This document shows positions 28,215 to 63,287 of a DNA stretch of 64,000 bases, piece after piece. Positions within the stretch are counted from its first letter, which is position 1; every line of letters begins with the position of its first letter. This stretch comes from Acidimicrobiaceae bacterium (lineage in GTDB: Bacteria; Actinomycetota; Acidimicrobiia; Acidimicrobiales; Aldehydirespiratoraceae), in assembly GCA_028820455.1 (NCBI GenBank), contig JAPPJC010000049.1, forward strand, positions 39,168 through 103,167, written 5' to 3'. The position numbers were made by a program, and so were the translations under genes. The notes under the pieces were generated by a model. The model was not told the DNA's origin. It ran no database searches and was given only the letters and a program-made list of their open reading frames with translations.

Positions 28215-28239
28215 TCCGACGTGGGAGCCACAGCAACAG

Positions 28240-42399: not shown

Positions 42400-43674
42400 G
42401 TGGGTTTATATGTTCCCAGGATCGTTGACGCGGAGTTGGACGAATTGACGGCGGGATTGGCGGCGGTCTCCATTGAGGGGCCGAGAGCGGTGGGCAAGAC
42501 CGAGACCGCGTTGCGTCGAGTTGGAACCGCTCACCGTCTCGACGATCCGGTGCAACTCGAGTTGGCTGCAGCCGATCCGAAGCGGCTTACATCCGGTGAA
42601 CCGCCGATACTGATCGACGAGTGGCAACGGGTTCCCTACTCATGGGATCTGGTGCGACGCGCTGTCGACGAAGGGGTAGAGGCGGGCCGGTTCATCCTCA
42701 CCGGCTCAGCCGCTCCCATGCAAGCTCCAAGCCATTCCGGAGCGGGACGCATAGTGACCGTACGGATGCGGCCACTGTCGCTGTCCGAACGCGGTCTGAG
42801 TGACCCCACAGTCAGCCTAGCCGGGCTGCTCGGCGGCACACGGCCCAACCTGTCGGGCGGCACCCACATCGGTTTACAAGACTACACCGAAGAGGTAGTC
42901 AGGTCGGGTTTCCCCGCCATCAGAACCCTTCCCCCGAGATTACAGCGCGCCCAACTCGACGGGTACATCGACCGCATCATCGACCACGACTTCACACAAC
43001 AGGGCCGCAGAGTACGCGACCGCAGATCGCTGCGATCCTGGATGACCGCCTACGCGGCAGCGGGATCCACCACAGCGTCGTTCGACACGATTCGAGACGC
43101 CGCGACACCCGGCGAGACGAACAAACCGGCTAAATCCACAATTCACGCATACCGTCGCATCCTCGAACGGCTGTGGGCGATCGAAGAAGTACCCGCCTGG
43201 CTGCCCACCAGAAACCGCCTGCGTCGCCTAGCCGCTTCGCCATCGCACCAACTCGCCGACCCCGCCCTGTCGGCACGCCTGCTCGGAGTCGGAGCAGACG
43301 CCCTCATAGCAGGCGACGATCCCGGCCCCCGCATACCCCGTGACGGCACCCTGCTGGGAGTGCTGTTCCAGTCGCTCGTCACACTGTCGGTGAGAACATA
43401 CGCCCAAGCCAACGAAGCCCGCGTGTCACATCTGCGCACCCGAGCAGGCGAACACGAGATCGACCTGATAGTCGAACGTGCCGACGGCCGAGTGGTCGCC
43501 TTGGAAGTGAAACTCTCAGCTACCATCAACAACGAAGACACCAGACACATACACTGGCTCGCCAAACAGATCGGCACCGACCTTCTCGACGCCGCGATCA
43601 TCACCACAGGCCCCGAAGCCTACAGACGAAAAGACGGCATAGGCGTCATACCAGCAGCCCTACTAACCGCCTGA
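42400..43674 (+). CDS. AAA ATPase with DUF4143-type C-terminal domain
   Basis: 424 aa. Walker A IEGPRAVGKTETA, ILIDEWQRVP (Walker B-like). C-terminal EIDLIVERADGRVVALEVK is typical of the AAA_14/DUF4143 family. Confidence 0.8.
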   Translation: MGLYVPRIVDAELDELTAGLAAVSIEGPRAVGKTETALRRVGTAHRLDDPVQLELAAADPKRLTSGEPPILIDEWQRVPYSWDLVRRAVDEGVEAGRFILTGSAAPMQAPSHSGAGRIVTVRMRPLSLSERGLSDPTVSLAGLLGGTRPNLSGGTHIGLQDYTEEVVRSGFPAIRTLPPRLQRAQLDGYIDRIIDHDFTQQGRRVRDRRSLRSWMTAYAAAGSTTASFDTIRDAATPGETNKPAKSTIHAYRRILERLWAIEEVPAWLPTRNRLRRLAASPSHQLADPALSARLLGVGADALIAGDDPGPRIPRDGTLLGVLFQSLVTLSVRTYAQANEARVSHLRTRAGEHEIDLIVERADGRVVALEVKLSATINNEDTRHIHWLAKQIGTDLLDAAIITTGPEAYRRKDGIGVIPAALLTA

Positions 43675-44078: not shown

Positions 44079-45803
44079 TTACGTCTCCCCACTGGCTGTC
44101 TCGAGATGGGTGACGGGATGGATCTCATAAACAAAGTCGATGATTTGGTCTGCGACCTGAGCTACTGGCATTTGCTTCAGGTTTTCAGCGGAGAGTTTCT
44201 TTTTGAGCATGGGCCATGTCTCCTCGGCTAACTCAATCTTTGAAAACTCGCAGTCCCACCGTCTCCATACAGTCTTTATGTCCTTCTTCTGTTTTCTGGC
44301 TTTCGCTAACTGTTTCTCGATTGCCTCAATCTCTGGTATGCAGTTGCTAATATGATCTGGTTTTCGTTTCGCCACTCTCTGGATTCCCAAGGCTAACTCC
44401 TCATCTGTGAAGTTGGCGAACTCAAAGCATCCACCATCTCCCCAAGTCCTTATAACGACTAGATGCTCGATGTCGGAGCGGCGCACTCTTGTTCGGAACT
44501 CATCTGGCAGAGACTCTATAATACTGTCTACTACCTGTTTGTGCTGCTTTTCCACTTTCTGTGGCGTACTATAACGGCTTTCGGGATCGACCACGACCAC
44601 GAATGCGGTCAAGGGTCGCAGCAATAGAAAAGCATCCCCATGGTCAGGATGCACTTCAGGGATGGCTATTGACCGAGCAACAAGTTTTGGGTCACCGGAT
44701 ACACTCTTGAGATTTACGAACTTCACCAATCTAGAGCTTGATCCAGGAGCGACCAACTTAAGCACACGAGGCACTATCATCATTTCGGTGTCCCCTTCAA
44801 CAGCCACTACGACAGTAGGCGTATTCTCAAGTCGATAGTCCCGTAAGGTTTTTGCCCGTTCAACGTAATCAACTTTTAGTCGATCGGGTAGCAATGGAAA
44901 ACCCTGAGCAGAATACTCCTGTAGCGGCTCTGCATAGCCGTCTGCCGCCAGATCCTCGTAGTATTGGAGGATCATCTCAGCAGCTATTCGTAGTTCCATA
45001 GCATTTAAGGCATCGTATCGGAGATCTTCCCAACGACGTGGAGTGGCTGCTTTAACGACTCGGTGCCAATCACCGAGTGGGTCGAAGGAACGCGCGTTAG
45101 CAAGCCAGAATTCCGCTTGCTCGCGGAGCGTAGTAGGCTTAATACTCGATAAGAGTTGTCGCTCCACATTAGGACTGGAAAGTACATAGTCACGTATTTG
45201 TTCAACCGAACCAATACATGAGATTCTTCCAAGCACCCTGGGCGTGTATCTCGGAGCGAGAACCTCAAGTACTATAGAAAGAGCTCTCATCTTGCGAGTC
45301 ATATCCACATAACTAGGCCGTAGGCGAGGGTGATCGTACACCATCCGGTCATCGAGTATCTGCACATTCCTGTGCAATCGTTCAATGACCGATGATATGC
45401 CCCGTAAGGCTAGAAGCTGAAACCATGAGTAGCGGACCCCAATGTGAAGGGTAAGGGTATGACGGGAGTATGATTTTGGCCATGGTCGAAAACGGGTTTG
45501 TAGAGGATCACGTAACTGACCGTGGAGACTAGCCTCATATAGTATAGATCTGTACATGGAGTACTGCTTAGGAGGATAGAGATCCACACCTGGCTCTACC
45601 TTACGTGCATATATACGAAATAAAGGTATCAGTACACGGATCTTATGTAAATACATAAGTAGATCCCTGTTGACATTGAAACCACGTTTCTTCGCTTCTT
45701 GAATGAATCCATTCACATCTAGTAGAGGTCTCTGGGAAAACGCGAACGGCATAGGCAGCAGATCAAGACTAGAAGGAACGACACCAGGTTTAATCTTGTG
45801 CAT
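44079..45803 (-). CDS. Standalone TOPRIM-like (OLD/DUF4276-type) domain protein with unknown N-terminal half
   Basis: 574 aa. VVVAVEGDTEMMIVPRVL (the EGxTE motif of OLD-type Toprim) followed by FVVVVDPES. The ~330-aa N-terminal region has no motif I recognise. Visibly more AT-rich than its flanks. Confidence 0.6.
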   Translation of the reverse strand: MHKIKPGVVPSSLDLLPMPFAFSQRPLLDVNGFIQEAKKRGFNVNRDLLMYLHKIRVLIPLFRIYARKVEPGVDLYPPKQYSMYRSILYEASLHGQLRDPLQTRFRPWPKSYSRHTLTLHIGVRYSWFQLLALRGISSVIERLHRNVQILDDRMVYDHPRLRPSYVDMTRKMRALSIVLEVLAPRYTPRVLGRISCIGSVEQIRDYVLSSPNVERQLLSSIKPTTLREQAEFWLANARSFDPLGDWHRVVKAATPRRWEDLRYDALNAMELRIAAEMILQYYEDLAADGYAEPLQEYSAQGFPLLPDRLKVDYVERAKTLRDYRLENTPTVVVAVEGDTEMMIVPRVLKLVAPGSSSRLVKFVNLKSVSGDPKLVARSIAIPEVHPDHGDAFLLLRPLTAFVVVVDPESRYSTPQKVEKQHKQVVDSIIESLPDEFRTRVRRSDIEHLVVIRTWGDGGCFEFANFTDEELALGIQRVAKRKPDHISNCIPEIEAIEKQLAKARKQKKDIKTVWRRWDCEFSKIELAEETWPMLKKKLSAENLKQMPVAQVADQIIDFVYEIHPVTHLETASGET

Positions 45804-46146: not shown

Positions 46147-46398
46147 CTAGTACGCAACTTCGGATGACATCACGATCGGCGGTCCCAGCCTCTCGAAGGC
46201 CTCATCAAAAATCTCCGTAGCCAGGTTCACGAGCCCTTCGTCTATCAGCTGCTCCAGAGCACCGCCCGGAGGCACTACGGGACTCAGACGCGCCACAGGC
46301 ACTCCCCTAACGGTGATCTCATAGGTCTCTCCTTCCGCCACCCGGCGAAGCCACCGACTGGCATGCTGCCGCAACTCCCGAACCCCGATCGTCTTCAT
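46147..46398 (-). CDS. Phd/YefM-type antitoxin (no adjacent toxin)
   Basis: 83 aa. MKTIGVRELRQHASRWLRRVAEGETYEITVRGVPVARLSPV. No PIN or RelE ORF lies downstream. Confidence 0.75.
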   Translation of the reverse strand: MKTIGVRELRQHASRWLRRVAEGETYEITVRGVPVARLSPVVPPGGALEQLIDEGLVNLATEIFDEAFERLGPPIVMSSEVAY

Positions 46399-46829
46399 GT
46401 GCTATCATGATAGCACAAAACGCCCACAACTCCGCTAGCGCGGACGACGAACAGAGCCCCAACGTGGGGAGTGTCGGGTCGTTAACACGACACCGGCGCA
46501 GCATAAGAGGGCCTCACTCTGGCAACTCTCCTGAAGAGCTTCCCGCGCTCTATGTCCAACAGAGTCGCACCCGCCAGAACAATCCTGAACTCTACAACGA
46601 GGAAGTCTTGTATGCTGATTAGGCATCCCTGTTGACCAGTAACGGCGGACGCAGAAGTATGCGAGTCGTGGCCTGTTGGTATCCGACTGGTCAAGTAACG
46701 GACACAGAAGCACCATGCGGTTTCATAGCGAGTTGTAACATCGCAACTGGGTTTTTATGTCTTGCGATGTTTCGGTGGCGAGGTGGGTGAACTCAGGCCA
46801 GGCGATTACGAAGTCGTTGCACGACAGGG

Positions 46830-47160
46830 CGTCGGTGTGCAACAAGTCCGCAAATTACCCACCATTCTCAGGACTACTCGCACTGCCGCTGTCAGGAGAA
46901 TCAACATTCGAGCTCGAAGGTGATGATTCCGGACTGCTGGACATCGTCGAGGTGAAAACACTTGGAGGTAGAGTCTGATTATTAGTAGGTCTAGGCGAAT
47001 ATCCAGCTGCATTTCCGCAGTATCGTTTGCCGATCCTTTGTGATTCACCCTTCGTCTTTGAACCTCGGCTTTTGTTTTTTGATCCTGTTCGGGCTTTCTT
47101 TCGCATCATCTGTGTTCTCCCCGTCAAGTCATATCTTATTTTGAGTCGCTTGATCTCGTT
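46830..47160. repeat. Direct repeat copy 2 with a 137-bp internal insertion
   Basis: Matches 43866-44062. The insertion spans 46974-47110. Confidence 0.7.
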
Positions 47161-47555
47161 GACCGTTGGCGAGTCCTTGAAACTGGGAATTCAAGAAACT
47201 CAACCTCAGACCATTTATCAGTATACCTGCACCAGTCGGATGCAACTGGACGCCAGTCTCCTGGTCGAAATTGAAGGCATAGCTGATATACAAGTCCCGA
47301 TCTCAAAACCACCACCCGCAGCGCACGAAGCAAGTCCTGATCGGAAGGTAGAAAGCTCTAGCGAAGGTATTATTCAAGCAGAACACCACATTCTATATCT
47401 GACAAGCCTAATTTCTGGGATACTGTTCACGCGAGACCAACATCTCAGTTTATTAGCATTGATGTTATTAGCATTGATGAAGGATGGTCAACAGCATCTG
47501 TACAGTTCAAAGTGGAGTGTAGAGATATCGCCACCAAGATTAACATTAAGTGGGA

Positions 47556-48593
47556 TCAGTCGCTATGACCAGCAGAGTGTATAAGGTTGGAAAGGTCAGG
47601 ATTGTCTGGATAGTCATCAAGCATTGCCTCTATTAGTCGCGACAATGTAATGTTTGCACCACCACCGCCACGATTGAGGTCTTGCAATGCTGACCACCAG
47701 ATTGAGTGTCCGTCGCCTGTGACTTGGAGTCTTGAGGGATCGCCTCCGGCACGTTCCCAGATCGAACGATCTGTTGGACCCTGGGGGTATAGTTTCGTCA
47801 CGAGATTGTGGAGCGTGTGGTCGCCTCCAACGGGAGAGACGTGTGAGAGTTTCGCGAGCAGTTCGAATGCGAAGGCCGCGGCATTGGAGGCGGCGATAGT
47901 CTGACTACCGCTTGCATCAGCTGCTGTCTTGTTGTCAAGTAGATCCGAGATCGCTCGGATCGCCAATCCATCAGCTCCCACGGTTGCGGCGGCTTTTGTG
48001 ACGCCCACATCCTCCATGGCAACTGCCACAGCGTCACTGAATGTAGATCGGATGCGGTTGGCGTCAGCAGACTGACTTGAGGCGATGACGCGTTCACCGA
48101 CGACGATCGGAGCTACGATCGCTTTTGGTGTCAAAACGTCAACAGCATCGCAGCGTCGGCGGGATAGCCATGAGCCGTCCGTTGCGATCATCCTCGCGAC
48201 CTGCACGAGCCTAGTCGAGACAGGGCCTACGTCGGGCCTTGATACAACGTGATCGCCTTCGCTTCTCCCAGATTCGGCCCAATAGATTTTGCTAGACGCT
48301 ACAACATCGCCCATCCGTACGTCTTTCACTCCACCAGCTACGCCAACCATGAGCACGATCTTTGACCGTAGGTTTATTGCAGTTTTGGTCGTCAGTGTAG
48401 CAGCGTCAATATTGCCCGGCCCGCATTCAATGATGCCCACGCTTATTGTTGTTGTGTCAGTGGCGAATCGGCCGATATCGACAACCGTTGCTCCTATACT
48501 ACGAGTGCGGAGGCTGTCAAGATGTTCCCGTACGGCGCGGTGCTCTAGTTGCAACGCTGTCACGATCAATGCATCAAGGCGATCGGAGGTCAT
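47556..48593 (-). CDS. Nucleoside phosphorylase-like (PNP_UDP fold) effector fused to a C-terminal effector-associated domain
   Basis: 345 aa. LIVTALQLEH, LMVGVAGGV and AVAMEDVG are typical of PNP/MTA-nucleosidase-like enzymes. The last ~80 aa (LYPQGPTDRSIWERAGGD...LIEAMLDDYPDNPDL) are homologous to the C-terminus of the upstream gene. ATGA overlap. Confidence 0.8.
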   Translation of the reverse strand: MTSDRLDALIVTALQLEHRAVREHLDSLRTRSIGATVVDIGRFATDTTTISVGIIECGPGNIDAATLTTKTAINLRSKIVLMVGVAGGVKDVRMGDVVASSKIYWAESGRSEGDHVVSRPDVGPVSTRLVQVARMIATDGSWLSRRRCDAVDVLTPKAIVAPIVVGERVIASSQSADANRIRSTFSDAVAVAMEDVGVTKAAATVGADGLAIRAISDLLDNKTAADASGSQTIAASNAAAFAFELLAKLSHVSPVGGDHTLHNLVTKLYPQGPTDRSIWERAGGDPSRLQVTGDGHSIWWSALQDLNRGGGGANITLSRLIEAMLDDYPDNPDLSNLIHSAGHSD

Positions 48594-50962
48594 GTTGCTT
48601 TTCGTATGATCTTGAGGTCAGAGTTTTTAGGGTAGTCGCGCAACATCTCCTTGATGAGACTCGCAAGAGTTGGTGCACCTACGGCACCGGTTGTGACTGC
48701 TGCGAGTGCTCTTTCCCAGCACTGCCTACCAGTGCCACACAGCTCTATGTCCGCTTCGTTGCCCCCAGCTCGAGTCCAGATGCCTTTTTGACTAGGCCCT
48801 TTCGGATACAACTTGACTGCTATCTCGTGGATACCAGCACTGAGTTCGTGAGTTGAAGCTGATCCCAACGAACCGAGCACCTTGGTCTTCAAGACTTCAA
48901 GTGGCGACAGGATTCGTTGACACGCAACCTTGGCGGCCACGAGGTCGGGACGTTGTGGAGCGTGAGTGATAATATACTGCGCAGCATTTTTCCATTTCTC
49001 ACGAGCGACGAGTTCGCCGAGCCGCTTTGCATCAGTCCCAAGATCAGCTGCAGCCATTATTGCTTTGGCACTGCCCGAATCTGCATAGGAAGCAAGCATC
49101 TCAATGGCATCGACTGCCTTGGATACGTCGATCACCGCGATGGCTTTCATAACTTTCTGACTCACGACTGCCCTGCTTAGGGTCGACTCAAGGCTGGATG
49201 CTGTAAATCCTTCAAGGGTGACTACTCTGGCAGTTCGGTTGAGAAGACGGGAACGCGCTGGCTCATCAACGATACTCCAGGCCTCGGCACGTCGAGGGTA
49301 GGATGCCAGATTGATCTCATCGCATGCACCGAGTTCGGCTACCAACGACCTCACGTTGCTATCGCCGTTTATGAGGGCGTTGAGAACCGGTTCCAACGCG
49401 TCCCATGGTTCCAACCATGTCCACGGATCAGCACCGTCTTCGACCGCTCGTGCCCAAATAGCCAGCCAACTTGGTGACCCCGTCCGCACCGGTAGAAGAG
49501 CGTCAGCGTCTTGGTGGACGACTTCGGCTGCTAGTTTGATGAGACCTCGCTCATTGAGAGCGACTGCGGCTTTGACCACGCCACGCGGCTCACACCGCGA
49601 TGCGAGTTGTGAGCGTGACTCAGATGTGTGCCCTGGGATGGCAAGATGATCTTGGAATGCTTCAATGGGCTCGCTGGTTGGGCATGACAGGCTGTGGGTC
49701 ATCGGGAGTTGTGCCTGTTGAGCGATTTCGTGCACCCACTCTTGGTTTCCTACGCCATCCACTGAAGCCAGTGCTGTGTCGATCCGTTCTGGAGCGGCCC
49801 GATGTGCAAGTGCTGCGAAGACGGTGCGACGGTTGGCGGCGATGGCTGCTTTGAGGTAGTCTACGAGTGCTTTCCCACGCTCCTTGATCTGTTTGTCAAG
49901 TGCTGTATTTATCGAGACGCATAGCTGATCGCGCGGTTTGGCTGCGATTTCATCCAACGCAGCCTGGAGATCATCTATGCGGCTCGAATCACCGATTACA
50001 GCCGCTGCCCACGGCTCGACTAACGCGCAGAGATTCGATTCAAGATCTGCGAGATCGAGGGTTCGCAGCCCCCGAACGTGCGAGAACGAAGCGTTAGTGG
50101 ATGATTCTGCAAGCAAAGCGACCACTCGTGCTTTGACGACACGTCCGCGCTGTGGTCCCGGGGCTAGGTGGCTGAGTAGATGTGCACATGCGCGGAGTCC
50201 GTCGGGGTTTGAGCTACAGGCTTCGTTGAGGTGCAGGTTCACCTGAGCGAGGTGATACCACTCGCGCAGCGAAGGTGCCACAAAATCTAGTTCAACCGCT
50301 ATATCCAAGTTGCCATCAAGGACAGCCCGACCGGTTTCTCTGGCCATCGGTGGATCATCGCCATTGATTATTGACGTTGAGTCGAAGCGCGCTCGGGACT
50401 GTTCCGGGACCAGGTAGACCCCGAACGTGGTATCGCGTTTGGGGTAGGGCACACTTGTGGGTGTGAACAGCAGACCGAAGACCAGATCAGCGCGATCTGC
50501 CGTGCTAAGTACGTCCCACAACTGGTCAAGAAGCACATCATAAGTCGAGGTGCCCAGCCAATAGACAGGCCGAGATTCCGCCAACAGATCCAGGACAGCA
50601 CCTAGACCCTCGAGGCGGCCACAACTAACGGGAGGAACGGCAGCGGCGTTAGCAGACGTAGCGTGGATACGGAGATCGGCGAGTTCCATCTCGCCCAATC
50701 GATCAATCTCGACAGCGGCTAGCGTTGTTTTGACCATGCCCGACCGATCTGCTTCTGCGTCGGGTTCGGTGAACTGCACCACATAGTAGTCGCGGATCGC
50801 ATAGCCAGCATAGAAGTTGGGCCATGTCGTCGGTGCGTCTGGCGGCAAATCAGTGTGCCAACGGATGGCGTCGAGCATCTCGGTGTCAATGCCTGCTGCG
50901 TCAATCAAGCCGTGTCTACCGCCCGCATCGCCGAAGCGTGCCCACCCGAGCATGTCACTCAC
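48590..50962 (-). CDS. Large adaptor protein (GAP1-like) with C-terminal effector-associated domain
   Basis: 790 aa with no catalytic motif seen. The C-terminal LYPKGPSQKGIWTRAGGN...LIKEMLRDYPKNSDL matches the effector C-terminus. 4-nt overlaps on both sides. Confidence 0.7.
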   Translation of the reverse strand: MSDMLGWARFGDAGGRHGLIDAAGIDTEMLDAIRWHTDLPPDAPTTWPNFYAGYAIRDYYVVQFTEPDAEADRSGMVKTTLAAVEIDRLGEMELADLRIHATSANAAAVPPVSCGRLEGLGAVLDLLAESRPVYWLGTSTYDVLLDQLWDVLSTADRADLVFGLLFTPTSVPYPKRDTTFGVYLVPEQSRARFDSTSIINGDDPPMARETGRAVLDGNLDIAVELDFVAPSLREWYHLAQVNLHLNEACSSNPDGLRACAHLLSHLAPGPQRGRVVKARVVALLAESSTNASFSHVRGLRTLDLADLESNLCALVEPWAAAVIGDSSRIDDLQAALDEIAAKPRDQLCVSINTALDKQIKERGKALVDYLKAAIAANRRTVFAALAHRAAPERIDTALASVDGVGNQEWVHEIAQQAQLPMTHSLSCPTSEPIEAFQDHLAIPGHTSESRSQLASRCEPRGVVKAAVALNERGLIKLAAEVVHQDADALLPVRTGSPSWLAIWARAVEDGADPWTWLEPWDALEPVLNALINGDSNVRSLVAELGACDEINLASYPRRAEAWSIVDEPARSRLLNRTARVVTLEGFTASSLESTLSRAVVSQKVMKAIAVIDVSKAVDAIEMLASYADSGSAKAIMAAADLGTDAKRLGELVAREKWKNAAQYIITHAPQRPDLVAAKVACQRILSPLEVLKTKVLGSLGSASTHELSAGIHEIAVKLYPKGPSQKGIWTRAGGNEADIELCGTGRQCWERALAAVTTGAVGAPTLASLIKEMLRDYPKNSDLKIIRKAT

Positions 50963-51798
50963 AGCGTCAGGAGTTCGCTGAGATCTCCCGTCTTGGACCC
51001 ATTGCTTCTGATGAGATACCCCATCGATTCGGGGCCGTGATCAACGAACTCGGGATCTGGTTTGTCATCGGCTAATGTCCGTCCTTGGGCCGACAAGCCC
51101 ATTACATGATGTCGTGACGGCTCCCAGTTGCCAGCAACATAGGAGTAAAACAGGGGCATGCGCTGCTTGAGGATCATCACGGGAATGACTCCATCGGTGA
51201 TATCAGATATTTCGTCCCAACAGGACAGCACGACTGTGAGATCGGGCGGGAAAGCGTCCGTCAACATATGTCGCTGGCGTTCATGGCGCAATATCTGGAG
51301 GAGTTCCACGAGGCGGATGTCCAAGGGAAGCCCGCGAGACTTTGCTGTTGCTTCCGACATGGGCTCTTCAAACTCTGGGAGGCTAGGCAGGCTAGACATC
51401 CGCTCCACACGGATGAATAGATTCCAGCGGGTCGACCGCACGACGAGGTCGCGCCAGTGTGGGGAGATATTGCGGGTGTTCACAAGTTCATCGATTGCTT
51501 CACCTGGATAATCAGGGATCGACAACCGCAGCATTTCGCCATCCTGTCGTCTCATGGTCAGTTCTTGGATTACCTTTACCCCGGCCGAAGTATGACGAAC
51601 TGGAAGACCTTGAGATAGGCGATCTAAGCCGTCGTGCACGGCAGCGAGGCTCTCTGGTGCACCGACAAGTGAAAGCGTGCTCAATCCGTGCCGTAGTCGC
51701 CCGTATAGCTGCACGAGAAAAGTTGATTTTCCGCTATCCGGCCCACCGACAAGCAGCACTAGTTCTGTTGACGAAGCCGCCCGGCTGACCGTGGTCAT
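50959..51798 (-). CDS. P-loop GTPase-like protein (second of tandem pair)
   Basis: 279 aa. Walker A LLVGGPDSGKST, DYPGE (DxxG), SCWD in the position of NKxD. 4-nt overlaps on both sides. Confidence 0.75.
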   Translation of the reverse strand: MTTVSRAASSTELVLLVGGPDSGKSTFLVQLYGRLRHGLSTLSLVGAPESLAAVHDGLDRLSQGLPVRHTSAGVKVIQELTMRRQDGEMLRLSIPDYPGEAIDELVNTRNISPHWRDLVVRSTRWNLFIRVERMSSLPSLPEFEEPMSEATAKSRGLPLDIRLVELLQILRHERQRHMLTDAFPPDLTVVLSCWDEISDITDGVIPVMILKQRMPLFYSYVAGNWEPSRHHVMGLSAQGRTLADDKPDPEFVDHGPESMGYLIRSNGSKTGDLSELLTL

Positions 51799-52856
51799 GT
51801 CGGCCTCAGCCGTTCGCGGAACCCCAGAAAGGGGTCCAGCTGCCTCGGGTCGTCATGCTCAAGGCGACGGGGTGCAGTTGCCTTTCGGATCGCCTCGTCG
51901 AGTGGAAAGATGGGATCAGGTATTGGGGATCTCCGAATAACAGACAACGGAGTAGCTGCCATCCCGAAGAGTTCGGTGTCGGTATGCTCAAGTGCTTTAT
52001 CAATCGTATCGGGTACAGGGAGATCAGCCTTCGCTCTCACCGGGTAGACCTCACGACCGTTAGCGACCGAAGACACTCGCATGGCCAGATTCTGGTAGGA
52101 ACTTCGAGCGCGTCCTTGATCTGGGCCTGAGAGCGCGTCGGAGTCGGAGAGTAGTACGAATAGATCAGCCCGGTCAGCGATCCATTGTGCTCCAGGTGCA
52201 GCGTCGGCTTCAATGGCCCATTCCTCGAACCACTCGCCTGGAACATCGGTAAAAAACACGTTATATAAGTTTCGCAGGTTCGAAGCGAGCCGGACGTGAA
52301 GCAGTGCTGGCGAGCGGCCGCTCGTAGTGTGTGGAGGGAAACCTCGTGATCCGTTAGGCGGAAACTCGGCATAGTGAGCGATCTGGTCCCATCCCAGAAT
52401 AGTGTAGGACCCGGCAAAGCTCAGACCGTTGCTTTCATAGTCGCGGCGTAGACGGATGAAGTATGCTGCAAGTGCAGATGTTTTGCCCGCGTTGGGTGCT
52501 CCGATCAGTGCCACAACCCGTGGGCGACCGGTACCAGCAATTGCGTTCAAGTCCACGCTGCCGAGAGCGAGCCCAGACCACGGTGGTCGGTCACCCTCTG
52601 TGTATAAGCCACTGCTCTCCGCTCCGTTGGTTTGCCAGTTCTCACACTCCGTTAGCTTAAGATCGCCAAGATGGCAGGGTGTTTTGGGAGCGTAACAGTG
52701 TGCGTTTTTGCATTTGTTTCCGCTGGCAGAGTGACCGCTCGTCAGGCCGTCACTACGATCCGGCTGAGCCGAGTCGACTCCCACCGCAGGCTCTTCGTGT
52801 GCTGGCTCTATAGGTGGGGCATCTACAGCCCCCGGTGCATTATTGTCTGGTGTCAC
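51795..52856 (-). CDS. P-loop GTPase-like protein (first of tandem pair) with Cys-rich N-terminus
   Basis: 353 aa. Walker A LIGAPNAGKTS, FTDVPGEW (DxxG). N-terminal CKNAHCYAPKTPCHLGDLKLTEC. 4-nt overlaps on both sides. Confidence 0.75.
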   Translation of the reverse strand: MTPDNNAPGAVDAPPIEPAHEEPAVGVDSAQPDRSDGLTSGHSASGNKCKNAHCYAPKTPCHLGDLKLTECENWQTNGAESSGLYTEGDRPPWSGLALGSVDLNAIAGTGRPRVVALIGAPNAGKTSALAAYFIRLRRDYESNGLSFAGSYTILGWDQIAHYAEFPPNGSRGFPPHTTSGRSPALLHVRLASNLRNLYNVFFTDVPGEWFEEWAIEADAAPGAQWIADRADLFVLLSDSDALSGPDQGRARSSYQNLAMRVSSVANGREVYPVRAKADLPVPDTIDKALEHTDTELFGMAATPLSVIRRSPIPDPIFPLDEAIRKATAPRRLEHDDPRQLDPFLGFRERLRPT

Positions 52857-53980
52857 GATTCCGGCTCCGGCAGATCAACGGCGCATGCGCTGAGCAAACC
52901 GATAACTTGAAGGTCTCTGAACACCGATTTGGCAGCATCGCCGGGCGTCAGTGTCTCTGGAAGGGTCAGTATTGACATGTCGGGGTCGTTGGCAGCAATC
53001 GCTGAAACCACAAGACCGTATCCGTCGACGCTGACTTCGCGCTTCGGCCCGATTCGTTCCCAAGCTGTTGCCAAGTCTTTGAACGTGATCGACAGCTCCG
53101 TGCCGATACTGCTGGCTATGGCCTCATCTAGCAGGTGCTCGACCGCTGTCGGTGCTGTTAGAGGAGTCAATCGGCGTATGTCTAGTGCTGTGGCGATCGC
53201 GCAAAGTGCAGGGTCGCTGACGTCGGCATACCGCTCACCGAGCACATCCGAATAGGCTGCAAGATGCCACCAAAGCAGACTCTCTCGAAGCAGTGAAGCC
53301 TCGACAACAGCCCACCGGGCTTTGAGTTGCGCTCGAAGTGCACCTCCCAGCTTCTGGGCGAAGGTTTTCAGTTCGCTATCATCCAGTGAGTCGCTGGTTA
53401 CAACCGGCGGCATCCGCAATTCGTCAATGTCGGTTGACGGTAGCCACACGAGGTCGAGACGCTCCGACACGACCGCATCAATCCGCGATATCTCATCTCT
53501 GACTACTTCCTCCCACCGGCCTACCGACACTCCCAACGCCCTAATGGTTCGAAGTACGTACCAGTTGGCTGTTTCGAGGTCCTCGTCATCTGCCGCTGCC
53601 GTGACCGCTGCTTGGAACGTAATAGCCCGCAGCAGTTCGGTAGGAGTCTCAGGGAAGGCGTTGCGCGCTGAGGGCCACTTGTCCAGCAGACAATTATAGG
53701 CGTAGTTCAAGACTGGATCATCGACCGGTGCTGTCGACTCGTCGATGGCACGAAGCAGAGCCGCAGCCAGCTTTGATCGACCTTCGCCCGCTAGCCACTC
53801 AGCCATGTTCTGGGCTGCTTCCCCGGCGTGTTTTAGTCGTTGATCATCTTCACCGAGATCACTTAGCAGTCCCGCCCGAAGCAGGTTCAACAGCAAATGG
53901 TTGGTCATCTGATTCCCTTGATTATAAAGCTGTGACTCGGCCACCGCCGAAGTCGCAGTCTGTTTGTGTACATTGTCCAA
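52853..53980 (-). CDS. All-helical protein, first gene of the GTPase operon
   Basis: 375 aa, Leu/Ala-rich, no catalytic motif. ATGA overlap with the downstream GTPase. An alternative start is MTNHLLLNLL at 53908. Confidence 0.7.
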   Translation of the reverse strand: MDNVHKQTATSAVAESQLYNQGNQMTNHLLLNLLRAGLLSDLGEDDQRLKHAGEAAQNMAEWLAGEGRSKLAAALLRAIDESTAPVDDPVLNYAYNCLLDKWPSARNAFPETPTELLRAITFQAAVTAAADDEDLETANWYVLRTIRALGVSVGRWEEVVRDEISRIDAVVSERLDLVWLPSTDIDELRMPPVVTSDSLDDSELKTFAQKLGGALRAQLKARWAVVEASLLRESLLWWHLAAYSDVLGERYADVSDPALCAIATALDIRRLTPLTAPTAVEHLLDEAIASSIGTELSITFKDLATAWERIGPKREVSVDGYGLVVSAIAANDPDMSILTLPETLTPGDAAKSVFRDLQVIGLLSACAVDLPEPES

Positions 53981-54442: not shown

Positions 54443-55384
54443 ATGTATATAGTACATTCAATGGAAGATCGGATGTGCATTGAAGTACTTCTTGAAGAAT
54501 CAAATACGCTGGTTGAAATTCTTGACATAATCGTAGAAGACATGTCCGATCCACGTCTACAGGCGATAGCTGACTCAGCCTGGTACCGCCTCGGATCAGT
54601 CAATGTTCTCATCCGAGATCAAGGTGGAGATGCGGTAGCAGCGTGCCTAGCTCGGGGACTTATAGAGCAAGCAGCATATTGGGATTGGACACTAGCGACA
54701 GGAGTTGGTGTTGATCACCTTGATCGGTGGGCGGTGCTTGAACTGGAGAACTTGTCGCGTCTTGCTGCTGAAATGGATGATGAGGTGTGGCTTGGGTGGT
54801 TAGTACCACCCAGTCTGACTTTAACAGTATCTTCAGGGCCAGCTATTCCGAAGAATCCTGGAGATGCAGTTCGACGACTCGGATCGGGTTTAGACGGGGC
54901 TGTTCTCGGGCCGTTGCAATTTGAGGGCCTGCTGTCAGCGTACCGGATCCTTGATGTGCTTGCACATGGCAACTATATTGGTGCCACAATCCTCTCAGGG
55001 CATCCAGATTCCAAATTGCCTGACTGTCTTGCCGCTATAGCTACGCATTTAGCGGCTGCTAGTGCTACTGCTGTGATGTTCGCTCTCGTCAATGAAGAAT
55101 CGTGTCTGGACGCGGTAGCAGCACAATTCAAGCTCGTGGCCACAACAGCATCTGCGATCCATGGTCTTAAATCGCAATTGTCATTTGTGACGCGGCGACT
55201 GCCTCATGCAAAACGAACACAGCCAGTTGACACAACTTCATCTATATCGCGAATGCCCACAGCTACCGAAGACATGACGAGACTAGGTATTGAGTTTGTA
55301 GATGCAGCTGATCATCTTGTCCAAAGCGTTTTAAATAGTGCTAACCACACAGAATATTGCTGGTGCATGGCTTCCACTGTATAA
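54443..55384 (+). CDS. Hypothetical protein, tandem paralog 1
   Basis: 313 aa, divergent from the GTPase operon. LARGLIEQAAYWDW aligns with AARMLLEDGARWSW of the next gene. AT-rich relative to its flanks. Confidence 0.6.
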   Translation: MYIVHSMEDRMCIEVLLEESNTLVEILDIIVEDMSDPRLQAIADSAWYRLGSVNVLIRDQGGDAVAACLARGLIEQAAYWDWTLATGVGVDHLDRWAVLELENLSRLAAEMDDEVWLGWLVPPSLTLTVSSGPAIPKNPGDAVRRLGSGLDGAVLGPLQFEGLLSAYRILDVLAHGNYIGATILSGHPDSKLPDCLAAIATHLAAASATAVMFALVNEESCLDAVAAQFKLVATTASAIHGLKSQLSFVTRRLPHAKRTQPVDTTSSISRMPTATEDMTRLGIEFVDAADHLVQSVLNSANHTEYCWCMASTV

Positions 55385-55391
55385 CTTTGAG

Positions 55392-56018
55392 ATGGCACAG
55401 TCAAATCTGTTAGTTATTCGTAATAGTTTAGAAGGAAGCCTGGGTAAAGCACTTATGCCAATTGCTGCACGCATGCTGCTTGAGGACGGTGCTAGATGGA
55501 GCTGGTTCAGACACAGTGCGGGGAATGAGATGAGAGGCGAGTCTCTAAAAGCGTTGGTCAATGATGGGATAGACTATCGAGATCGAATAGCTGCGAATCT
55601 TAAATCGGACGGAGTACCTCAGTATATCATTGACCAACTCCTCGGCACTGCCCTCGAAGTTTCTCGCCCCGAATCGGCGACAATACCAACAGCAAAATTA
55701 GATGACATGCTGCGCGGTGCTTACCCTAACCTATCATACATTGATACAACACGAGCTATGTACAGCATATTATCACAATTTGTGCATGCTACACCTATCT
55801 CAAATTGGCATATTCATCGAGATATATTTCCTTCACTCTCAGCACCCATTTATGCTGTATCATTAGAATCAGCTGTTAGAGGATTCGAGCGCATAGCATC
55901 AATTACTCTCCCAATGATGGGTATCGATCTTGAATCCCTAGAGCAACCGTTGAAGAAGATGCGGAAACAGTGTGCTATGATAATTCAGCAGGCAATCCTC
56001 TATCATTTCCTAGGATAG
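55392..56018 (+). CDS. Hypothetical protein, tandem paralog 2
   Basis: ORF 55338..56018. ATG 55392 lies just after the upstream stop. Shares a helical N-terminal motif with the preceding gene. Confidence 0.6.
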   Translation: MAQSNLLVIRNSLEGSLGKALMPIAARMLLEDGARWSWFRHSAGNEMRGESLKALVNDGIDYRDRIAANLKSDGVPQYIIDQLLGTALEVSRPESATIPTAKLDDMLRGAYPNLSYIDTTRAMYSILSQFVHATPISNWHIHRDIFPSLSAPIYAVSLESAVRGFERIASITLPMMGIDLESLEQPLKKMRKQCAMIIQQAILYHFLG

Positions 56019-56021
56019 ATG

Positions 56022-57253
56022 GGGGATTATAGGGTTAGGTTGACGGAAGCTCGTATGCTGGGTATGTTCATTGTATGGGCAATTCACCAGGAAAATCGTA
56101 TAGGGGTGGGATCAGTCTGTTACGGTTGGCGGTCATGTTTCCCGATGAGCGAGCCGCTCGGAATGGTTTGAAGGTAGTATCTGGCCGGATGGTAGAATCT
56201 GCCCACGTTGTGGTAGTGGCAAGACTTGCGAGGCGAGTCACGCTAAGATGCCTTACTGGTGCGGTGCTTGCCGTTCCTATTTCAGTGTCAGGACGAACAC
56301 GGTGCTGGAATCGTCGAGGCTGCCCCTGCTGAAATGGGTGTATGCCGTGTATTTAGAGGTGACTAGCCTCAAAGGTGTGAGCTCCATGAAGCTACACCGC
56401 GACATCGATGTGGCCCAGAGCACTGCTTGGCATATGCTGCACAGGATACGCAAGGCCTTCAAAAACGACGACCCCCTGTTCAGTGGTATAGTCGAAGTCG
56501 ACGAGACGCACTTCGGTGGGAGAGAACGCAACAAGCACCAGTCGCAGCGCAGCGGTAAGCGCGGCCCGAGTGGCAAGGCAACCGTAGTCGGAGCGAGAGA
56601 ACGCAGCACGGGACGTGTGGCTGCTGCTAGTGTGCCCGATACCACGGCTTCCACGCTATGCGGGTTCGTGGACACCCACGTCGGGAGCAGGGCATTGTTG
56701 ATGACGGATGGGACGCACGCTTACAGCGGTTATAATCGCGTTGTCGTGAACCACAGCGTAGGAGAATACGTGAGAGGAATGGCGCACACCAACGGTATCG
56801 AGAGCTTCTGGGCTATGCTCAAGCGCGCTTACCAGGGAGTGTACCATCACATCAGCCGCAAGCACCTGCACAGGTACGTGGGCGAGTTCGCCAGCCGCCA
56901 CAACCTGCGGCCGCCGGATACGGTGGATCAAATGTCAACATTAGCTCGGGGCATGATCGGTAAACGCCTCACGTACGCGGAGCTGGTAGCATGAAACGAC
57001 TATACCGTTCTGATTGCAAAGCCACAACAGACGAACTGTCCGATGAAAGGGGTGAAAGCGGACTTGAACCATCTGGAACCGCCATTCAACGACTCAGGTA
57101 GCGTGTATCCGATGATATTCGACACCGAGACCGTCACAACGCAGCAGAAAACACCACCGCGCATCCAGGAGTCGAAAAATACACGAAACCACAACCCGCA
57201 AACCCAAACACGCAACCCCCACAACACCCCGTCAACCTAACCCTATAATCCCC
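56022..57253 (+). mobile_element. IS1595-family insertion sequence
   Basis: 25-nt terminal inverted repeats GGGGATTATAGGGTTAGGTTGACGG (56022-56046) and its complement (57229-57253). 8-bp direct duplication GATAGATG at 56014-56021 and 57254-57261. Confidence 0.9.
56075..56994 (+). pseudogene. IS1595-family (ISXO2-like) transposase with apparent frameshift
   Basis: The N-part MGNS...MFPDERAAR is in frame 2. The Zn-ribbon and DDE body (EWFEGSIWPDGRICPRCGSGKTC...VEVDETHFGG...) is in frame 1, tracked as 56248..56994. The switch is at 56159-56161, a short G run, so it could be a sequencing error. Confidence 0.75.
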
Positions 57254-57464: not shown

Positions 57465-58637
57465 TCATGCCGCGACCGTCCTCACCCGGCCGGAAAGGAG
57501 GTCGTCTGCGAGGCCAGCGCGGAGTTTCTGGAGCTTGTCTAGTTGCTGCTGGGTGGCCTGGATTGCATCGTCAGCTGTGTCGAGGATCTCTGCACTACGT
57601 TGTTGTTCTTCTAGTGATGGGAGATGGAGCTTAAGCTCCCCAATTAGCTTTTGATTCACGGATGGTAATGCTCCGATTTGGACAAAGTTCTTGAAATCAA
57701 CAAGCTGCAACCAGCGATATAACCATTCAGTCGAGACAAGCGACGTTGGAATGGCCGCCATCATGTTATTGTCTACGATTGAGTCAACTGTCAATATTCT
57801 ACGTTTGTTGCCGAGTAAAGCAGCACCAACTTTCGCGAATATGACCGAACCGGGTGGAAGAAGTCTCCATCCATATCTTACAGCGACCTCACGTTCGACA
57901 TAGTTGTTCGCGTCTCGCATGAACTTTCTGTTGCCAGATGCATTCATATCGCTTACCTTATAAAATGGGACGGATCCTGTCTGGTTCCCTTGCATATCCT
58001 CGGGAAATCCATGTCCACCCTTAAGAATTGCGACAGCTGCCAGATCAATTGCTGGGCCAGTTGAGCTCAGCACAAGCTGTTCCTGGACGGCACTTGAGAC
58101 GACTTGCAGTTTGGTGATGACATACTCAGTAGTCCGAATGGTTTCGTCAAACGTGTCGAGAATTTCTGCGATACGTTGCTGTTCGTCTAGGGGTGGTACT
58201 GGTACGTGCCAGCGTACTAAGTTCGCTCTAGGTAGATGACCGATACTTGTCTGCCCCGTTAAGGCTCGGAGCAGACCGCGACGTGCGGCATATTCAAAAT
58301 AATATCGCATGAAGAGCGCGCTCACCTTGGCAATAGGACGCAGACGATGGATAGCATTCTGAAAATAACAATTAGACAACTCACCAGACCACAAGGCTGC
58401 TCTTCCTACCTCGCCTCCTTCACAGATAAGCAAGTCTCCCGGTTGTAACCTATAGCACTTGCGTTCTATACCACTAAAGTTCATTGTTCCAAGGTCATCA
58501 ATGACTATTTTTCCCCATTGAACGTTCCGGTTTGCGAGGTACTGATATTGTGGCCCATTATTGGAACCATTACTAAGCATCTTGCCGAGTTGAACCTCAA
58601 ACAGCTGACCCAAAGGCTGTTGTTCCCACTCACCCAT
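57465..58637 (-). CDS. hsdS: Type I R-M specificity subunit
   Basis: Two target-recognition halves, each followed by a conserved helix ([19 protein letters not shown] and [21 protein letters not shown]). ATG 58637 overlaps the hsdM stop. Confidence 0.9.
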
Positions 58638-61035
58638 AACCCAGCCTCTCGAGATGTTCCTGGAGTCGGGCAGTAGCAGCATCTCGTTCAGCTTCGAATT
58701 CTCCCAGAGTTGTGCCGTACTTGTCGATTAGGTTGTTGTACCAAGCGTCGGTTTTGCGTTGGATCTCTGCGAAGTGATCGTCTACGAGCTTTTCGATACG
58801 GCCTCTGAGCACGCCGATCGCCTCTGTCGGGGCATCTGCTTCTTCCATGGCACCGAGAGCATCACGAGCTGCGTCGAGAAGTGAGATATCCAACGTTCGG
58901 ACTCTCGTCTTGAGTAAACGGGACTCTGACTTCATCTGTTTGATCTTGGTAGGGCTCAGAACGTTAGTGTCAGCAGCACCGTCGTCGTTGTTCACTGCTG
59001 TGGCTGCTTTGATTCTGGTGTTGAGGTCGGCTAGTGTGGCGGCCAACTCCGACCTGGATGCGAGCTGCGGACCGGCTAGGAGTTTCACAACAGCCTGATC
59101 GGCTAGGGCCGGAGCGTTCTTGTCGTCTTGGCTGGTTTCAGCGGTGGTCAGCCAGGCTTCAATCACTGCTTTCCATCCTCTACTGACCGCCGTTTTGAGT
59201 TCGTAGAAGCTTTCTTGCCACCAGGTAGCGGATATGCCAGCGGCTTCGAAGCGGTCCATGCCATCTGCCGTCATGCGGTCTGTGAACTTTTCTACGAGCT
59301 CCTGGCGTACTCCGGCGAGGCTGTCGCGTCCGGGCAGGTTTTGCAGCATCGGCTCTACCGTATCGTTCCACCATTGGGGCCAGGGGCTGACCGCGGCCCG
59401 CTGGGACACTGCATCGCTTATGATGCTGTGTGCGGCTTCACGTTCTTGTGGTGATGTGACGTTATGGTGGCACCAGTCGGCGTAGCCGTCACCCCGGTCA
59501 GTGAACAGGAGAGCGGCATCGAGGCCTGCCTGGTCGTGGAGCTCCTTGGCGGCGTTGATTTCGGCTACTGGCACGCCGCCGTGGAGGTGGGCTCGCACGT
59601 CGTGGGGTTCGGGTGGTGGCGAGTTGTCGGCGTAGCGTCGGATGTTGCAGTTGAAATCGTTTTCGGCTAGCTCTTCTATGGTGACGACTCTGGCGAAGCT
59701 GTCTACGTCGGTGAAGCTGTGGTAGGCGGCGGTGATCTTCTCTTCGTCACGGGGGCGTAGGTGGTTCTGAGCCCGGCCTGCGTAGTAGTCACGGTCGGCG
59801 TTGATGAACAGCACTCTGCCCCGACGACTGGGCGGTTTGGAGCCGGGTGCCCGCAGGATCAGGATGGCAGCGGGGATGCCGGTGCCGTAGAACAGGTTCG
59901 GAGCTAGACCGATCACGGTGTCGAGCAGATCAGCCTCGATGATCTTACGGCGGATCTCACCTTCCGTGCCGCCACGGAACAGCACGCCGTGGGGCATGAC
60001 AGTGGCGACGATGCCGCCGGGTTTGTCGCCGTCTTCGGGTTTGAGCACGGCCAGCATGTGCTGCAGGAACATCAGATCGGCCTTCTTGCCGCCTTCGGGG
60101 GTGTAGCCGTAACGGAACCGCTCGGGGTGGGTGAGCGACGCCTTGTCGTAGTTCTGACTGAACGGCGGATTGGTGATCACCCGGTCGAAACGCTTCAGCT
60201 CGCCACCGCTGACGTGCTCGGGACTGGCGAGGGTGTCATTGTTGCGCAGGTCGGCATCGTATATGCCGTGCAACAGCATGTTCATCTTCGAAATCGACCA
60301 GGTAGTACCATTGTTCTCCTGCCCGGCCAGTTCCAGATTGTTCGGGTCGCCGCCGTTGTCGGCCACATGGTTACGGGCGTAGATCAGCATACCGCCCGAC
60401 CCCGAACATGGGTCGTAGATACTCATACCCTCCTGCGGGTCGAGCAGGCGCACCATCAGCTGCACCACCGGCCTAGGAGTGTAAAACTCGCCGCCCTTCT
60501 TACCCGCAGAATCCGCGAAGTCGCGGATCAGATACTCGTAGGCCGCGCCCAATAGGTCAGGGAACTCGAAATCGGAGTTGCGCAGCCGGTAGCGCGAGAA
60601 ATGGTCGATAAGGTTGCGCCACTTCTTGTCCGACACGGTGGTGGTGCCGACCCGCCGGTTGAAGTCTATATGCTGCAACACCCCCTCCAACGGCGGGTTC
60701 TCCTGCTCCAACCCACTAAGAGCCTTATTGAGTCCATCCCCTACTTGTCTGTGCAGCTCGTTCTGCAGATACTCCCACCGGGCCTGCTCGGGCACGAAAA
60801 ACGCCTCATTGTAGAAGTCCCGGTCGCAGGCCCGTCGCTCGGCCTGCTCACGCGAACGTCCTCTGGCCATCTCACGCTCTATGAGCCGCTGACGTTCCTC
60901 ATCGAACACGTCGCTGGCTCTCTTCAAGAACAGCACTCCGAAAATGTACTCCTTGAACTCGGAGGCGTCCATTTTACCCCGCAGAATATCCGCCGCCGTA
61001 AACAGATGCCGCTCAAGCTGTCGTAACGTAAGCAC
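58630..61035 (-). CDS. hsdM: Type I R-M N6-adenine DNA methyltransferase subunit
   Basis: 801 aa. HsdM N-domain (LWxAADILRG-type [23 protein letters not shown]), motif [13 protein letters not shown], motif [10 protein letters not shown]. Long helical C-terminal extension. Confidence 0.93.
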
Positions 61036-61436: not shown

Positions 61437-63287
61437 ATGAAAGTTGATATTGTTACTTTCAAAGAACTGTTCCAAAAAGATGTGCAGTATCAAGTTCCAA
61501 TCTTTCAGCGTGAGTATGTTTGGACGCTTGAGAACCAGTGGGAAGTACTCTGGGAGGACATTCAGGAAACTGCTGAAGAATACCTTAAAAAGCTCAAAAA
61601 GTTAGATAATGATAGAGCCAAGGCACAGCAGCGCACGCGAAGGCATTTCATGGGTGCTGTAGTGCTCCAGCAGAAGCAGGGGACCATAGCGGATACGCAG
61701 AAGTGCGACATCATCGACGGTCAGCAGCGCATTACCACAGCTCAACTCATCTTGGATGCAGCGCGAGATGTCATCGGAGGAACCTTGGGAGACAGAAGAG
61801 CGAAGAATCTGGAACAACTGGTGGGCAATCGGTTCGTGGAAGGCACGGATCGATTCAAGCTTTGGCCAGCACGCAGTGACAGGGATGCCTTCCGGTATGC
61901 CATGACCAAAGGTGATGAAGGATCCGATAGCACACCCTCTGGGATATGCGTTGCACACGGTTACTTCCGCGATCGAATAGAAGAGTGGTTGAACTCTGAT
62001 TTTGATGCGGACGACACTGTGACCGTTGAAAAGAAGGCTCACGCTCTTGAGACGACTCTGCTCGGACTATTCGAATTCGTGACGATCGATCTGGCGGTTG
62101 ATGATGACTCCAATATCATATTCGAAGTGTTGAACGCGCGCGGTACGCCTCTGTCGCCTGCTGATCTGATCAAGAATTACATACTCTACACAGCGGAGAA
62201 GGAAGGACGGCAGGGCAGCGCGGAGGAGCTTCACGATAAGGTTTGGGGACAGTTTCTTGATCCATGGTGGAGCTTGGAAGTACGGCAGGGTGCTCTGATC
62301 CGTACTCAACTGGATATCTTCCTCAACTACTGGTTGGCATCAGCCTTAACAAAAGAAATAAGATCAAGCCGCGTGTATCCCGAATTTGTGGAATACGTGA
62401 GAGAACAGAGCCAGTCCTCTGCTGAATACTCAATACAAACGATAGCTGGTGAAATCAATCGATACAGTAAGATCTATCACGGGTGGTATGAGTATGCACA
62501 GGACGGTCATCCAGCTTTCGGTGGTTTCTTCCGGCGCAGTTGGAGATGCGGGCTGGGTGGAATGAGTCCTCTAGTGCTATGGCTGTTTGCACAACGTGAT
62601 CACGGACTGCCTGAAGAGGAACTTGTGCGCATTGTCGGTCACATAGAGAGTTTTCTCGTGCGAAGGGCGATGTGTCGGATTAATACCGCTGGTTTGAATC
62701 GCCTGAGCGTTACACTCCTGGGGCGTGTTCGTGAAGTTGACGATAAGCAGATACTTCATACACTCACAAGTACACTCACAGATATGCAAGGTACTCTACG
62801 TTGGCCGACTGATGATGAAGTTGAACAGGCAGTACTCGAACAGCCGATGTATGGTCGTGTGGGTGTTGACAAGATCCGGATGATTCTCGCTGCCTTGGAA
62901 GAACAGGAACGTCGGAAAGATCCATACTCCCAATCCGTTGCAGAAGACCTGGAGAAACGGACTGTCGAACACGTAATGCCCCGAGCATGGCATGATAATT
63001 GGCCACCACCAGATGGCACGAATCACGAAAATGGGCTTGCACGACGCAATCTCCTAGTCGATACGCTGGGCAATCTCACTCTGCTGACTGGAAAACTCAA
63101 TGCCTTTATCTCGAATGGCCCGTGGCACGTGAAACGTGAAGCATTCAGTGAACACCCAGGCTTGTACATAACTCAAGATGTGCAGAAAACACAGGAATGG
63201 TCAGACGACGCCATCCAAAATCGCGGGCGAAATCTGCTTTATGAAATACTGAAAACATGGCCGCGCCCCAGTAGCGAGCCCTTATGA
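61437..63287 (+). CDS. GmrSD-like type IV restriction enzyme (DUF262 + DUF1524)
   Basis: 616 aa. [10 protein letters not shown] (DUF262 DGQQR motif). C-terminal EHVMPRAW...[11 protein letters not shown] (His-Me/HNH-like DUF1524). Confidence 0.85.

Follow-up and report, generated by a model that had tools for sequence, protein, structure and literature searches.

How is the enzyme encoded at the end of a GTPase-centred operon coupled to the core encoded in front of it? We addressed this question for a locus of an Acidimicrobiaceae bacterium, in a 64,000-nucleotide stretch of contig JAPPJC010000049.1 (the window), where five minus-strand open reading frames (ORFs; 53980-47556) follow one another in the order GASH, DO-GTPase2, DO-GTPase1, GAP1 and PNP-EAD1, with a 4-nt overlap between the stop and start of consecutive genes (Table 1). 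An earlier note on this DNA had pointed out that the last two proteins, the 790-aa GTPase-associated protein 1 (GAP1) and a 345-aa protein with a PNP fold, share a C-terminal domain of about 80 aa, that they are otherwise unrelated, and that such sharing between a scaffold and its effector follows the pairing logic of effector-associated domains. The segment concerned, 47556-48830, comprises the PNP gene in full and, of the gene upstream, the final ~80 codons. The answer that we consider probable is that the two copies of the domain tether the nucleosidase to a GTPase-GAP1 core, and that cleavage of adenine nucleotides would thereby be switched by the GTPases.

A C-terminal domain shared by GAP1 and the nucleosidase

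Both peptides quoted in the earlier note are present in the translations. When the whole 345-aa and 790-aa proteins were compared by composition-adjusted BLASTP, a single significant segment was obtained, pairing residues 261-334 of the former with 711-783 of the latter at 33/74 identities (45%), with one gap and E=1e-17. Every other segment between the two proteins had E>4, which indicated that their remainders are unrelated, so that both observations of the earlier note held. The PNP tail scored 39.0 bits with the Pfam model of effector-associated domain 1 (EAD1, PF19955), over the gathering cut-off of 24.2 bits. The GAP1 tail matched a hidden Markov model of 10 EAD1 sequences, the GAP1 copy itself included, with E=9e-39, and PF19955 is precomputed on the GAP1 orthologues P0003, P0005, P0007, P0009 and P0010. 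By these sequence comparisons the shared tail of ~80 residues is assigned to EAD1. No third EAD1 copy was found within the 64-kb window.

Four split-form loci chosen across 34-68% GAP1 identity (L002, L003, L004 and L006) have their five genes in the order of the window and likewise carry EAD1 on both proteins, and EAD1 is at least as conserved as the whole protein that carries it (71% versus 68% for GAP1, 76% versus 71% for PNP). When a profile built from the window's two EAD1s was searched against 1.84 billion cluster representatives at E<=1e-3, 723 of them matched. These results bear on whether the similarity could be functionless, arising from chance, a low-complexity artefact, or recent local duplication or gene conversion. 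The Gly-rich GGGG stretch could indeed slightly inflate scores, but the E value of 1e-17 was obtained with composition adjustment, both copies match the Pfam model, separate orthologous lineages have been kept down to 34% GAP1 identity, and EAD1 is carried by all 723 representatives. Taken together, BLASTP, Pfam, lineage conservation and the 723 representatives refute a functionless similarity, to which we assign practically no likelihood.

In many bacterial conflict systems, interchangeable effectors are proposed to be connected through EAD-type adaptors, in analogy to animal Death-fold signalling, and both the hypothesis of homotypic EAD1 recruitment and the Death-fold analogy were already put forward by Kaur, Burroughs, Iyer and Aravind (2020, eLife 9:e52696, PMC7159879). 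The pairing logic in the earlier note is the same idea, and it agrees with the presence of Pfam EAD1 on both proteins. The domain pair and the docking idea are thus already known, from the literature, from Pfam and from the NCBI annotation of these proteins: GAP1 is identical to P0001 and the PNP effector to P0022, both from an Acidimicrobiaceae metagenome-assembled genome (MAG) and both named effector-associated domain EAD1-containing protein. What is added here is that a covalent link has apparently taken the place of the EAD1 pair, twice and independently and once with relics, together with a split between adaptor-borne and effector-borne EAD1s and a negative fold search.

Fusions of GAP1 to the PNP domain

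If the EAD1 pair acts as a non-covalent tether, then both copies should become dispensable once GAP1 and PNP are joined in one polypeptide. In the split form, GAP1 is ~790 aa long and ends in EAD1, and the PNP-EAD1 gene comes next in L002, L003, L004 and L006. In the GAP1::PNP fusions P0011 (994 aa) and P0012-P0016 (971-983 aa) neither EAD1 is present, and the fused-form operons L001, L005 and L007 consist of four genes, without a separate effector. In a neighbour-joining tree of the GAP1 core (691 columns, 100 bootstraps), the fused forms were monophyletic in 0/100 bootstraps. P0011 was placed as sister to the window GAP1 (96/100), within an otherwise split-form clade (100/100), while P0012-P0016 formed a clade of their own (89/100), with split forms as outgroups. 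The tree of the PNP domain was congruent with the GAP1 tree, the PNP domain of P0011 lying nearest that of the window at 74% identity. The simplest history, as far as these trees suggest, would be a split, EAD1-bearing ancestor followed by two independent fusions, each of which lost both EAD1s.

The locus of the younger fusion retains traces of this event. In L001, 41 nt stand in place of the 255 nt that encode the GAP1 EAD1, and the GAP1 core is thereby brought into the PNP frame. The old GAP1 C-terminus (NPQLRII.QAI*) is readable in another frame, and of the PNP EAD1 the first ~30 codons are still present, degraded and no longer in frame (HNLCTIVTVQYLQSPANSSIWEHAGADEA, compared with HNLVTKLYPQGPTDRSIWERAGGDPS in the window). 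These remnants indicate that the P0011 fusion arose by an out-of-frame deletion using the overlapping stop/start (ATGA) junction. No EAD1 relics were found in the older fused clade P0012-P0016.

The fact that both EAD1s are lost jointly, and exactly on fusion, is what a non-covalent tether predicts; were each EAD1 to bind something other than its counterpart, the joint loss would be difficult to account for. The EAD1 pair is evolutionarily interchangeable with a covalent GAP1-PNP link.

Two kinds of EAD1 and how the pair may act

We counted architectures, clades and motifs in the best 150 of the 723 EAD1 representatives. These comprised 43 proteins with GAP1 and EAD1, 37 with PNP and EAD1 (EAD1 being N-terminal in 3), 38 other long proteins and 31 short fragments. 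Among the 38 other long proteins, 24 matched the caspase model (Peptidase_C14), 5 matched CHAT and one was a WD40 protein, each family having been counted on its own, with overlaps possible. The earlier note had suggested looking for the domain on other effector types, and the caspase and CHAT proteins supply them.

Over five loci, EAD1 identity was 48% among GAP1 copies and 55% among PNP copies. In an unbootstrapped neighbour-joining tree of these short domains, one clade held 39 of the 43 GAP1-borne EAD1s and only 6 long effector EAD1s, and the EAD1s of PNP and caspase proteins were intermixed. The motifs were distributed in a similar way: GGGG occurs in 66/75 effector EAD1s (PNP, caspase and other) versus 12/43 GAP1 EAD1s, and GxxGAP in 19/43 GAP1 EAD1s versus 0/75 effector EAD1s. 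We take as a lead that GAP1-borne and effector-borne EAD1s form separate old sub-lineages, and that the pair within one locus would not be closest paralogues. Since the two copies belong to separate old lineages, an origin of the window EAD1s by recent duplication or gene conversion was rejected. Adjacent EAD1 copies tend to be closest relatives in the published survey (PMC7159879), whereas here they are not closest and fall into an adaptor type and an effector type. The pairing thus looks homotypic at the level of the family and heterotypic at the level of the sub-family. Tentatively, and with somewhat less than even confidence, we suggest that EAD1 may be a directional connector, with a socket sub-lineage on GAP1 (GxxGAP) and a plug sub-lineage on interchangeable effectors (GGGG), and that the split window and the fused P0011 may represent a natural experiment on the equivalence of an EAD pair and a peptide bond. 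If this is true, effectors could be swapped behind a constant interface.

Models of EAD1 calculated with AlphaFold2 (AF2) show five helices over ~85 residues, with a pLDDT of 82.5 for the domain alone and 83-95 in the full protein, in keeping with a small, all-alpha, non-enzymatic terminal domain. In this respect EAD1 resembles Death-fold adaptors and the bacterial Death-like domains (bDLD1/EAD3, bDLD2-3), which are likewise small, all-helical, non-enzymatic domains present on both core and effector, and it is also like Death-fold adaptors in its proposed pairing with its own kind. It differs from the Death folds in its five predicted helices and in having no significant neighbour in the PDB: Foldseek of the model against the PDB gave no match at E<=0.001 (best E=3, TM ~0.3, TPR/Fis1-like), and the EAD1 profile found no relative of solved structure among PDB sequences. 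Membership of EAD1 in the six-helix Death fold (DD/CARD/DED/PYD) was rejected on these grounds. Since the Foldseek search was negative, the resemblance is one of analogy and not of membership, and the term 'death-domain-like' in the earlier note stands for the logic of the system and falls for its fold. A viral EAD1 mimic was without support, Foldseek against BFVD having returned no significant match and a 'Death domain-containing protein' only at E=6.8.

These observations also bear on a nucleated assembly, in which the GAP1 EAD1 would seed a polymer or cluster of effector EAD1s in the manner of CARD or Death domains, and the PNP enzyme would be activated by induced proximity. MTAN-family enzymes function as dimers. 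A difference between adaptor-type and effector-type EAD1s would fit the roles of seed and polymer, two EAD1 stretches are found in some proteins (e.g. P0178, P0263), and the analogy to Death-fold signalling is published (PMC7159879). However, the EAD1 model has no significant similarity to Death-fold structures, and both EAD1s are dispensable in the GAP1::PNP fusions, which suits a plain tether better than an obligatory polymer. We therefore consider nucleated assembly unlikely.

In the tether that we favour, the adaptor-type EAD1 of GAP1 would bind the effector-type EAD1 of the nucleosidase and hold the enzyme non-covalently at the GTPase-GAP1 core. Upon sensing of an invader, the GTPase switch would alter the state of GAP1, and the tethered enzyme would be released, concentrated or activated. 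It would then cleave the N-glycosidic bond of adenine nucleotides, with ATP as the likely substrate, and the infected cell would be starved. Of this scheme we infer the physical EAD1-EAD1 contact, the control by the GTPases, the substrate and the defence function.

Several points weigh against the tether. The GAP1 tail reached only 23.5 bits with PF19955, 0.7 bits short of the cut-off; we accepted it as EAD1 because of the pairwise E value of 1e-17 and the orthologues that carry PF19955. P0011 could represent a locus in decay and not a working fusion; that the fused architecture is viable follows from the conservation of the P0012-P0016 clade. The Pfam models GAP1-M and GAP1-C found no match in the 790-aa GAP1 even at E<=10. 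PADLOC 2.0 matched no system-level model and recognised the PNP effector domain only; since it is blind to the system, the defence function is presumed from context. Full-text literature searches did not find an experimental paper on DO-GTPase systems or EAD1, and yielded, besides two papers from the Aravind group, a single DGR preprint in which they are mentioned. Finally, the identity between GAP1 and PNP EAD1s was 40% within a locus and also 40% between loci, so that no signature of pair-specific co-divergence is present at this depth.

This last equality, in which no pair-specific co-evolution is visible, would also fit a reading in which both EAD1s bind the same third partner, be it a ligand, an invader molecule or a further part of the system (GASH or the GTPases, for example), and the shared domain serves common regulation rather than recruitment. 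A regulator-binding domain should, however, have persisted in at least one copy, and instead both EAD1s were lost together upon fusion, in two independent events. The occurrence of EAD1 on unrelated effectors (caspase, CHAT) and on unrelated cores also fits a generic connector better. A common third partner is in our view quite improbable.

Conceptually the locus contains nothing new, but with a close fused relative it makes a compact test case for the tether, with five genes and a simple enzymatic read-out in adenine release and ATP loss. The P0011-type fusion provides a natural 'delete both EAD1s and fuse' control.

The operon, its effector and the surrounding island

GAP1-N1 GTPase-centric systems were described as consisting of GASH, two DO-GTPases (one with a Zn ribbon) and GAP1, the DO-GTPases being paralogous members of the TRAFAC clade with a Walker B glutamate, and GAP1, encoded downstream of a DO-GTPase gene, comprising GAP1-N1, GAP1-M and GAP1-C domains (PMC7159879). 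Their variable effector is fused to GAP1, coupled by EAD1 or coupled by GAAD, PNPase is among the effectors listed, and EAD1 occurs on unrelated cores as well (PMC7159879). The window presents the same gene set, with two DO-GTPases (PF19993, PF19975) that carry DxPGE, four Cys before DO-GTPase2, and GASH; it also has the C-terminal EAD1 on the core protein GAP1 and a second copy on the PNPase effector of the adjacent gene. Judged by gene content, the locus appears to be a complete GAP1-N1-type double-GTPase conflict system, presumably with a role in anti-phage defence or abortive infection.

Besides the relation between the EAD1 copies, two differences from the published systems were observed. 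The latter were found mainly in proteobacteria, bacteroidetes and spirochaetes, whereas the host here is an Acidimicrobiia MAG; and GAP1-M and GAP1-C belong to the published GAP1, whereas their Pfam models are unmatched in the window GAP1. The middle and C-terminal regions of GAP1 are well conserved among its homologues, and the Acidimicrobiia GAP1 subfamily may lie outside the current GAP1-M/GAP1-C models. A scan of genome contigs with the single GAP1 protein returned nothing, and a 12-sequence GAP1 alignment, searched against species-representative genomes, identified one genome, Ca. Poriferisodalis (the same as L007). The subfamily is nearly absent from species-representative genomes.

The GASH gene occupies the equivalent position in L002-L007. 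Both GTPases contain the motifs GxxxxGK[ST] and DxPGE, and in an alignment from six loci the P-loop and DxPGE of DO-GTPase2 are conserved, as is its N-terminal four-Cys, Zn-ribbon-like motif (CX4C...CX9-10C). In L006 (5210-6754), a single 514-aa protein combines DO-GTPase2 with DO-GTPase1 (PF19993 + PF19975), a second fusion of the Rosetta-stone type, which supports the published idea of a GTPase heterodimer. A scan for promoters and terminators gave sites no more numerous than in shuffled sequence, and Rfam and tRNA scans gave none.

Table 1. Coordinates of the operon, its domains and the surrounding defence island in the window, and of the relics in the fused locus L001.
Feature	Position	Strand	Evidence or remark
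GASH (GTPase-associated system helical) protein, 375 aa, operon gene 1	52853..53980	-	Pfam PF19994, E=3.8e-29
DO-GTPase2, 353 aa; Walker A GAPNAGKT, Walker B DVPGE	51795..52856	-	Pfam PF19993, E=1e-42
DO-GTPase1, 279 aa; Walker A GGPDSGKST, Walker B DYPGE	50959..51798	-	Pfam PF19975, E=2.4e-61
GAP1, 790 aa, adaptor/scaffold	48590..50962	-	GAP1-N1 Pfam PF20012, E=1e-12
GAP1-N1 domain, GAP1 aa 8-93	50684-50941	-	Pfam PF20012
EAD1 of GAP1, aa 711-788, adaptor-type, motif TGAVGAPT	48599..48832	-	Pfam 23.5 bits, E=8e-5
PNP-EAD1 effector gene, 345 aa, last in operon	47556..48593	-	start overlaps GAP1 stop by 4 nt
PNP/MTAN-fold nucleosidase domain, aa 9-246; E17, E194, D217	47856..48569	-	Pfam PNP_UDP_1, E=1.4e-13
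EAD1 of PNP effector, aa 261-339, effector-type, motifs WW.AL, GGGG	47577..47813	-	Pfam 39.0 bits, E=1e-9
YgjP-like peptidase and type I HsdR	27318-31749	-	
DNA methylase	34796-35989	-	
UvrD-like helicase	36773-39022	+	
AAA_14/DUF4143 ATPase	42400-43674	+	
IS1595 transposase	56248-56994	+	
HsdS/HsdM	57465-61035	-	
GmrSD	61437-63287	+	
Relics in the fused P0011 gene	L001 3870-4000 and 4680-4800		old GAP1 C-terminus and stop; PNP EAD1 start

The PNP domain of the effector was modelled by AF2 with a pLDDT of 89.5, and Foldseek matched it to structures of MTA/SAH nucleosidase (MTAN) with E=1e-19 and TM 0.85. Across 95 homologues, residues E17, M193, E194, S216 and D217 do not vary. In the HMMER alignment to the MTAN chains 4f1w and 4wkc, ME (193-194) of the query is aligned with ME and RAISD (213-217) with RAISD. 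We take E17, E194 and D217 to be the equivalents of Glu12, Glu174 and Asp197 of E. coli MTAN, and Glu12 and Asp197 agree with the mutant PDB entries 1z5n and 1z5o. PADLOC assigned the protein to 'Effector PN-superfamily' (E=3e-15). A housekeeping MTAN or futalosine hydrolase was rejected, since the NCBIfam scores lie far under the equivalog cut-offs (56 bits against a cut-off of 169 bits for housekeeping MTAN) and the gene lies within a defence operon.

The PNP-domain effectors Cap17 of CBASS and DtcC of Detocs act as ATP nucleosidases: during infection they split ATP and dATP into adenine and ribose-5'-triphosphate and so exhaust the ATP pool, and their catalytic sites were mutated at D472 in Cap17 and D353 in DtcC (Rousset et al. 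2023, bioRxiv 10.1101/2023.01.24.525353). The window protein is like them in that its effector domain has the PNP/MTAN fold and retains the catalytic Asp-type residue (D217 here), and in that its gene closes a defence operon. It differs in its coupling, which would run through an EAD1 tail to a GTPase-associated scaffold, whereas Cap17 is activated by cyclic nucleotides and DtcC is coupled through a phospho-receiver domain. By analogy with Cap17 and DtcC, PNP-EAD1 likely cleaves adenine nucleotides, and specifically ATP.

The operon lies within a defence island at 27318-63287. HsdR is ~26 kb away from HsdS/HsdM, as if other systems had been inserted inside a type I restriction-modification locus. 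Directly downstream of the operon, ~1.1 kb (46400-47555) contains no convincing ORF and no Rfam match. It is followed by an orphan ORF for a Phd/YefM-type antitoxin (46147-46398, minus strand, Pfam E=2e-8), which has no recognisable toxin partner. A 574-aa ORF (44079-45803, minus strand), 1.7 kb downstream of the PNP-EAD1 gene, had no match in Pfam, NCBIfam, PADLOC or PHROGs; read by eye, its stretch 'VVVAVEGDTEMMIVPRVL' is reminiscent of a Toprim/OLD-type motif. Divergent from the operon are two overlapping ORFs of 313 and 226 aa (54443-56018, plus strand), again with no match in Pfam, NCBIfam, PADLOC or PHROGs, and not conserved beside the system in related loci.

The first part of the window (1-27150) is occupied by ~22 ORFs of 210-462 aa that have no Pfam match, a sample of which also had no match in PHROGs or among PDB sequences. 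These ORFs belong to three paralogous families, and their layout is that of a three-gene cassette present in about six diverged copies in tandem. Proteins of family A have lipoprotein-like N-termini (e.g. 17533-18648), family B includes 20911-21897, and family C combines a hydrophobic N-terminal anchor with a G/V-rich composition (e.g. 13829-15217). The cassette paralogues are 23-68% identical, with E values down to 1e-144, and parts of this region show a strong GC skew, up to 0.38.

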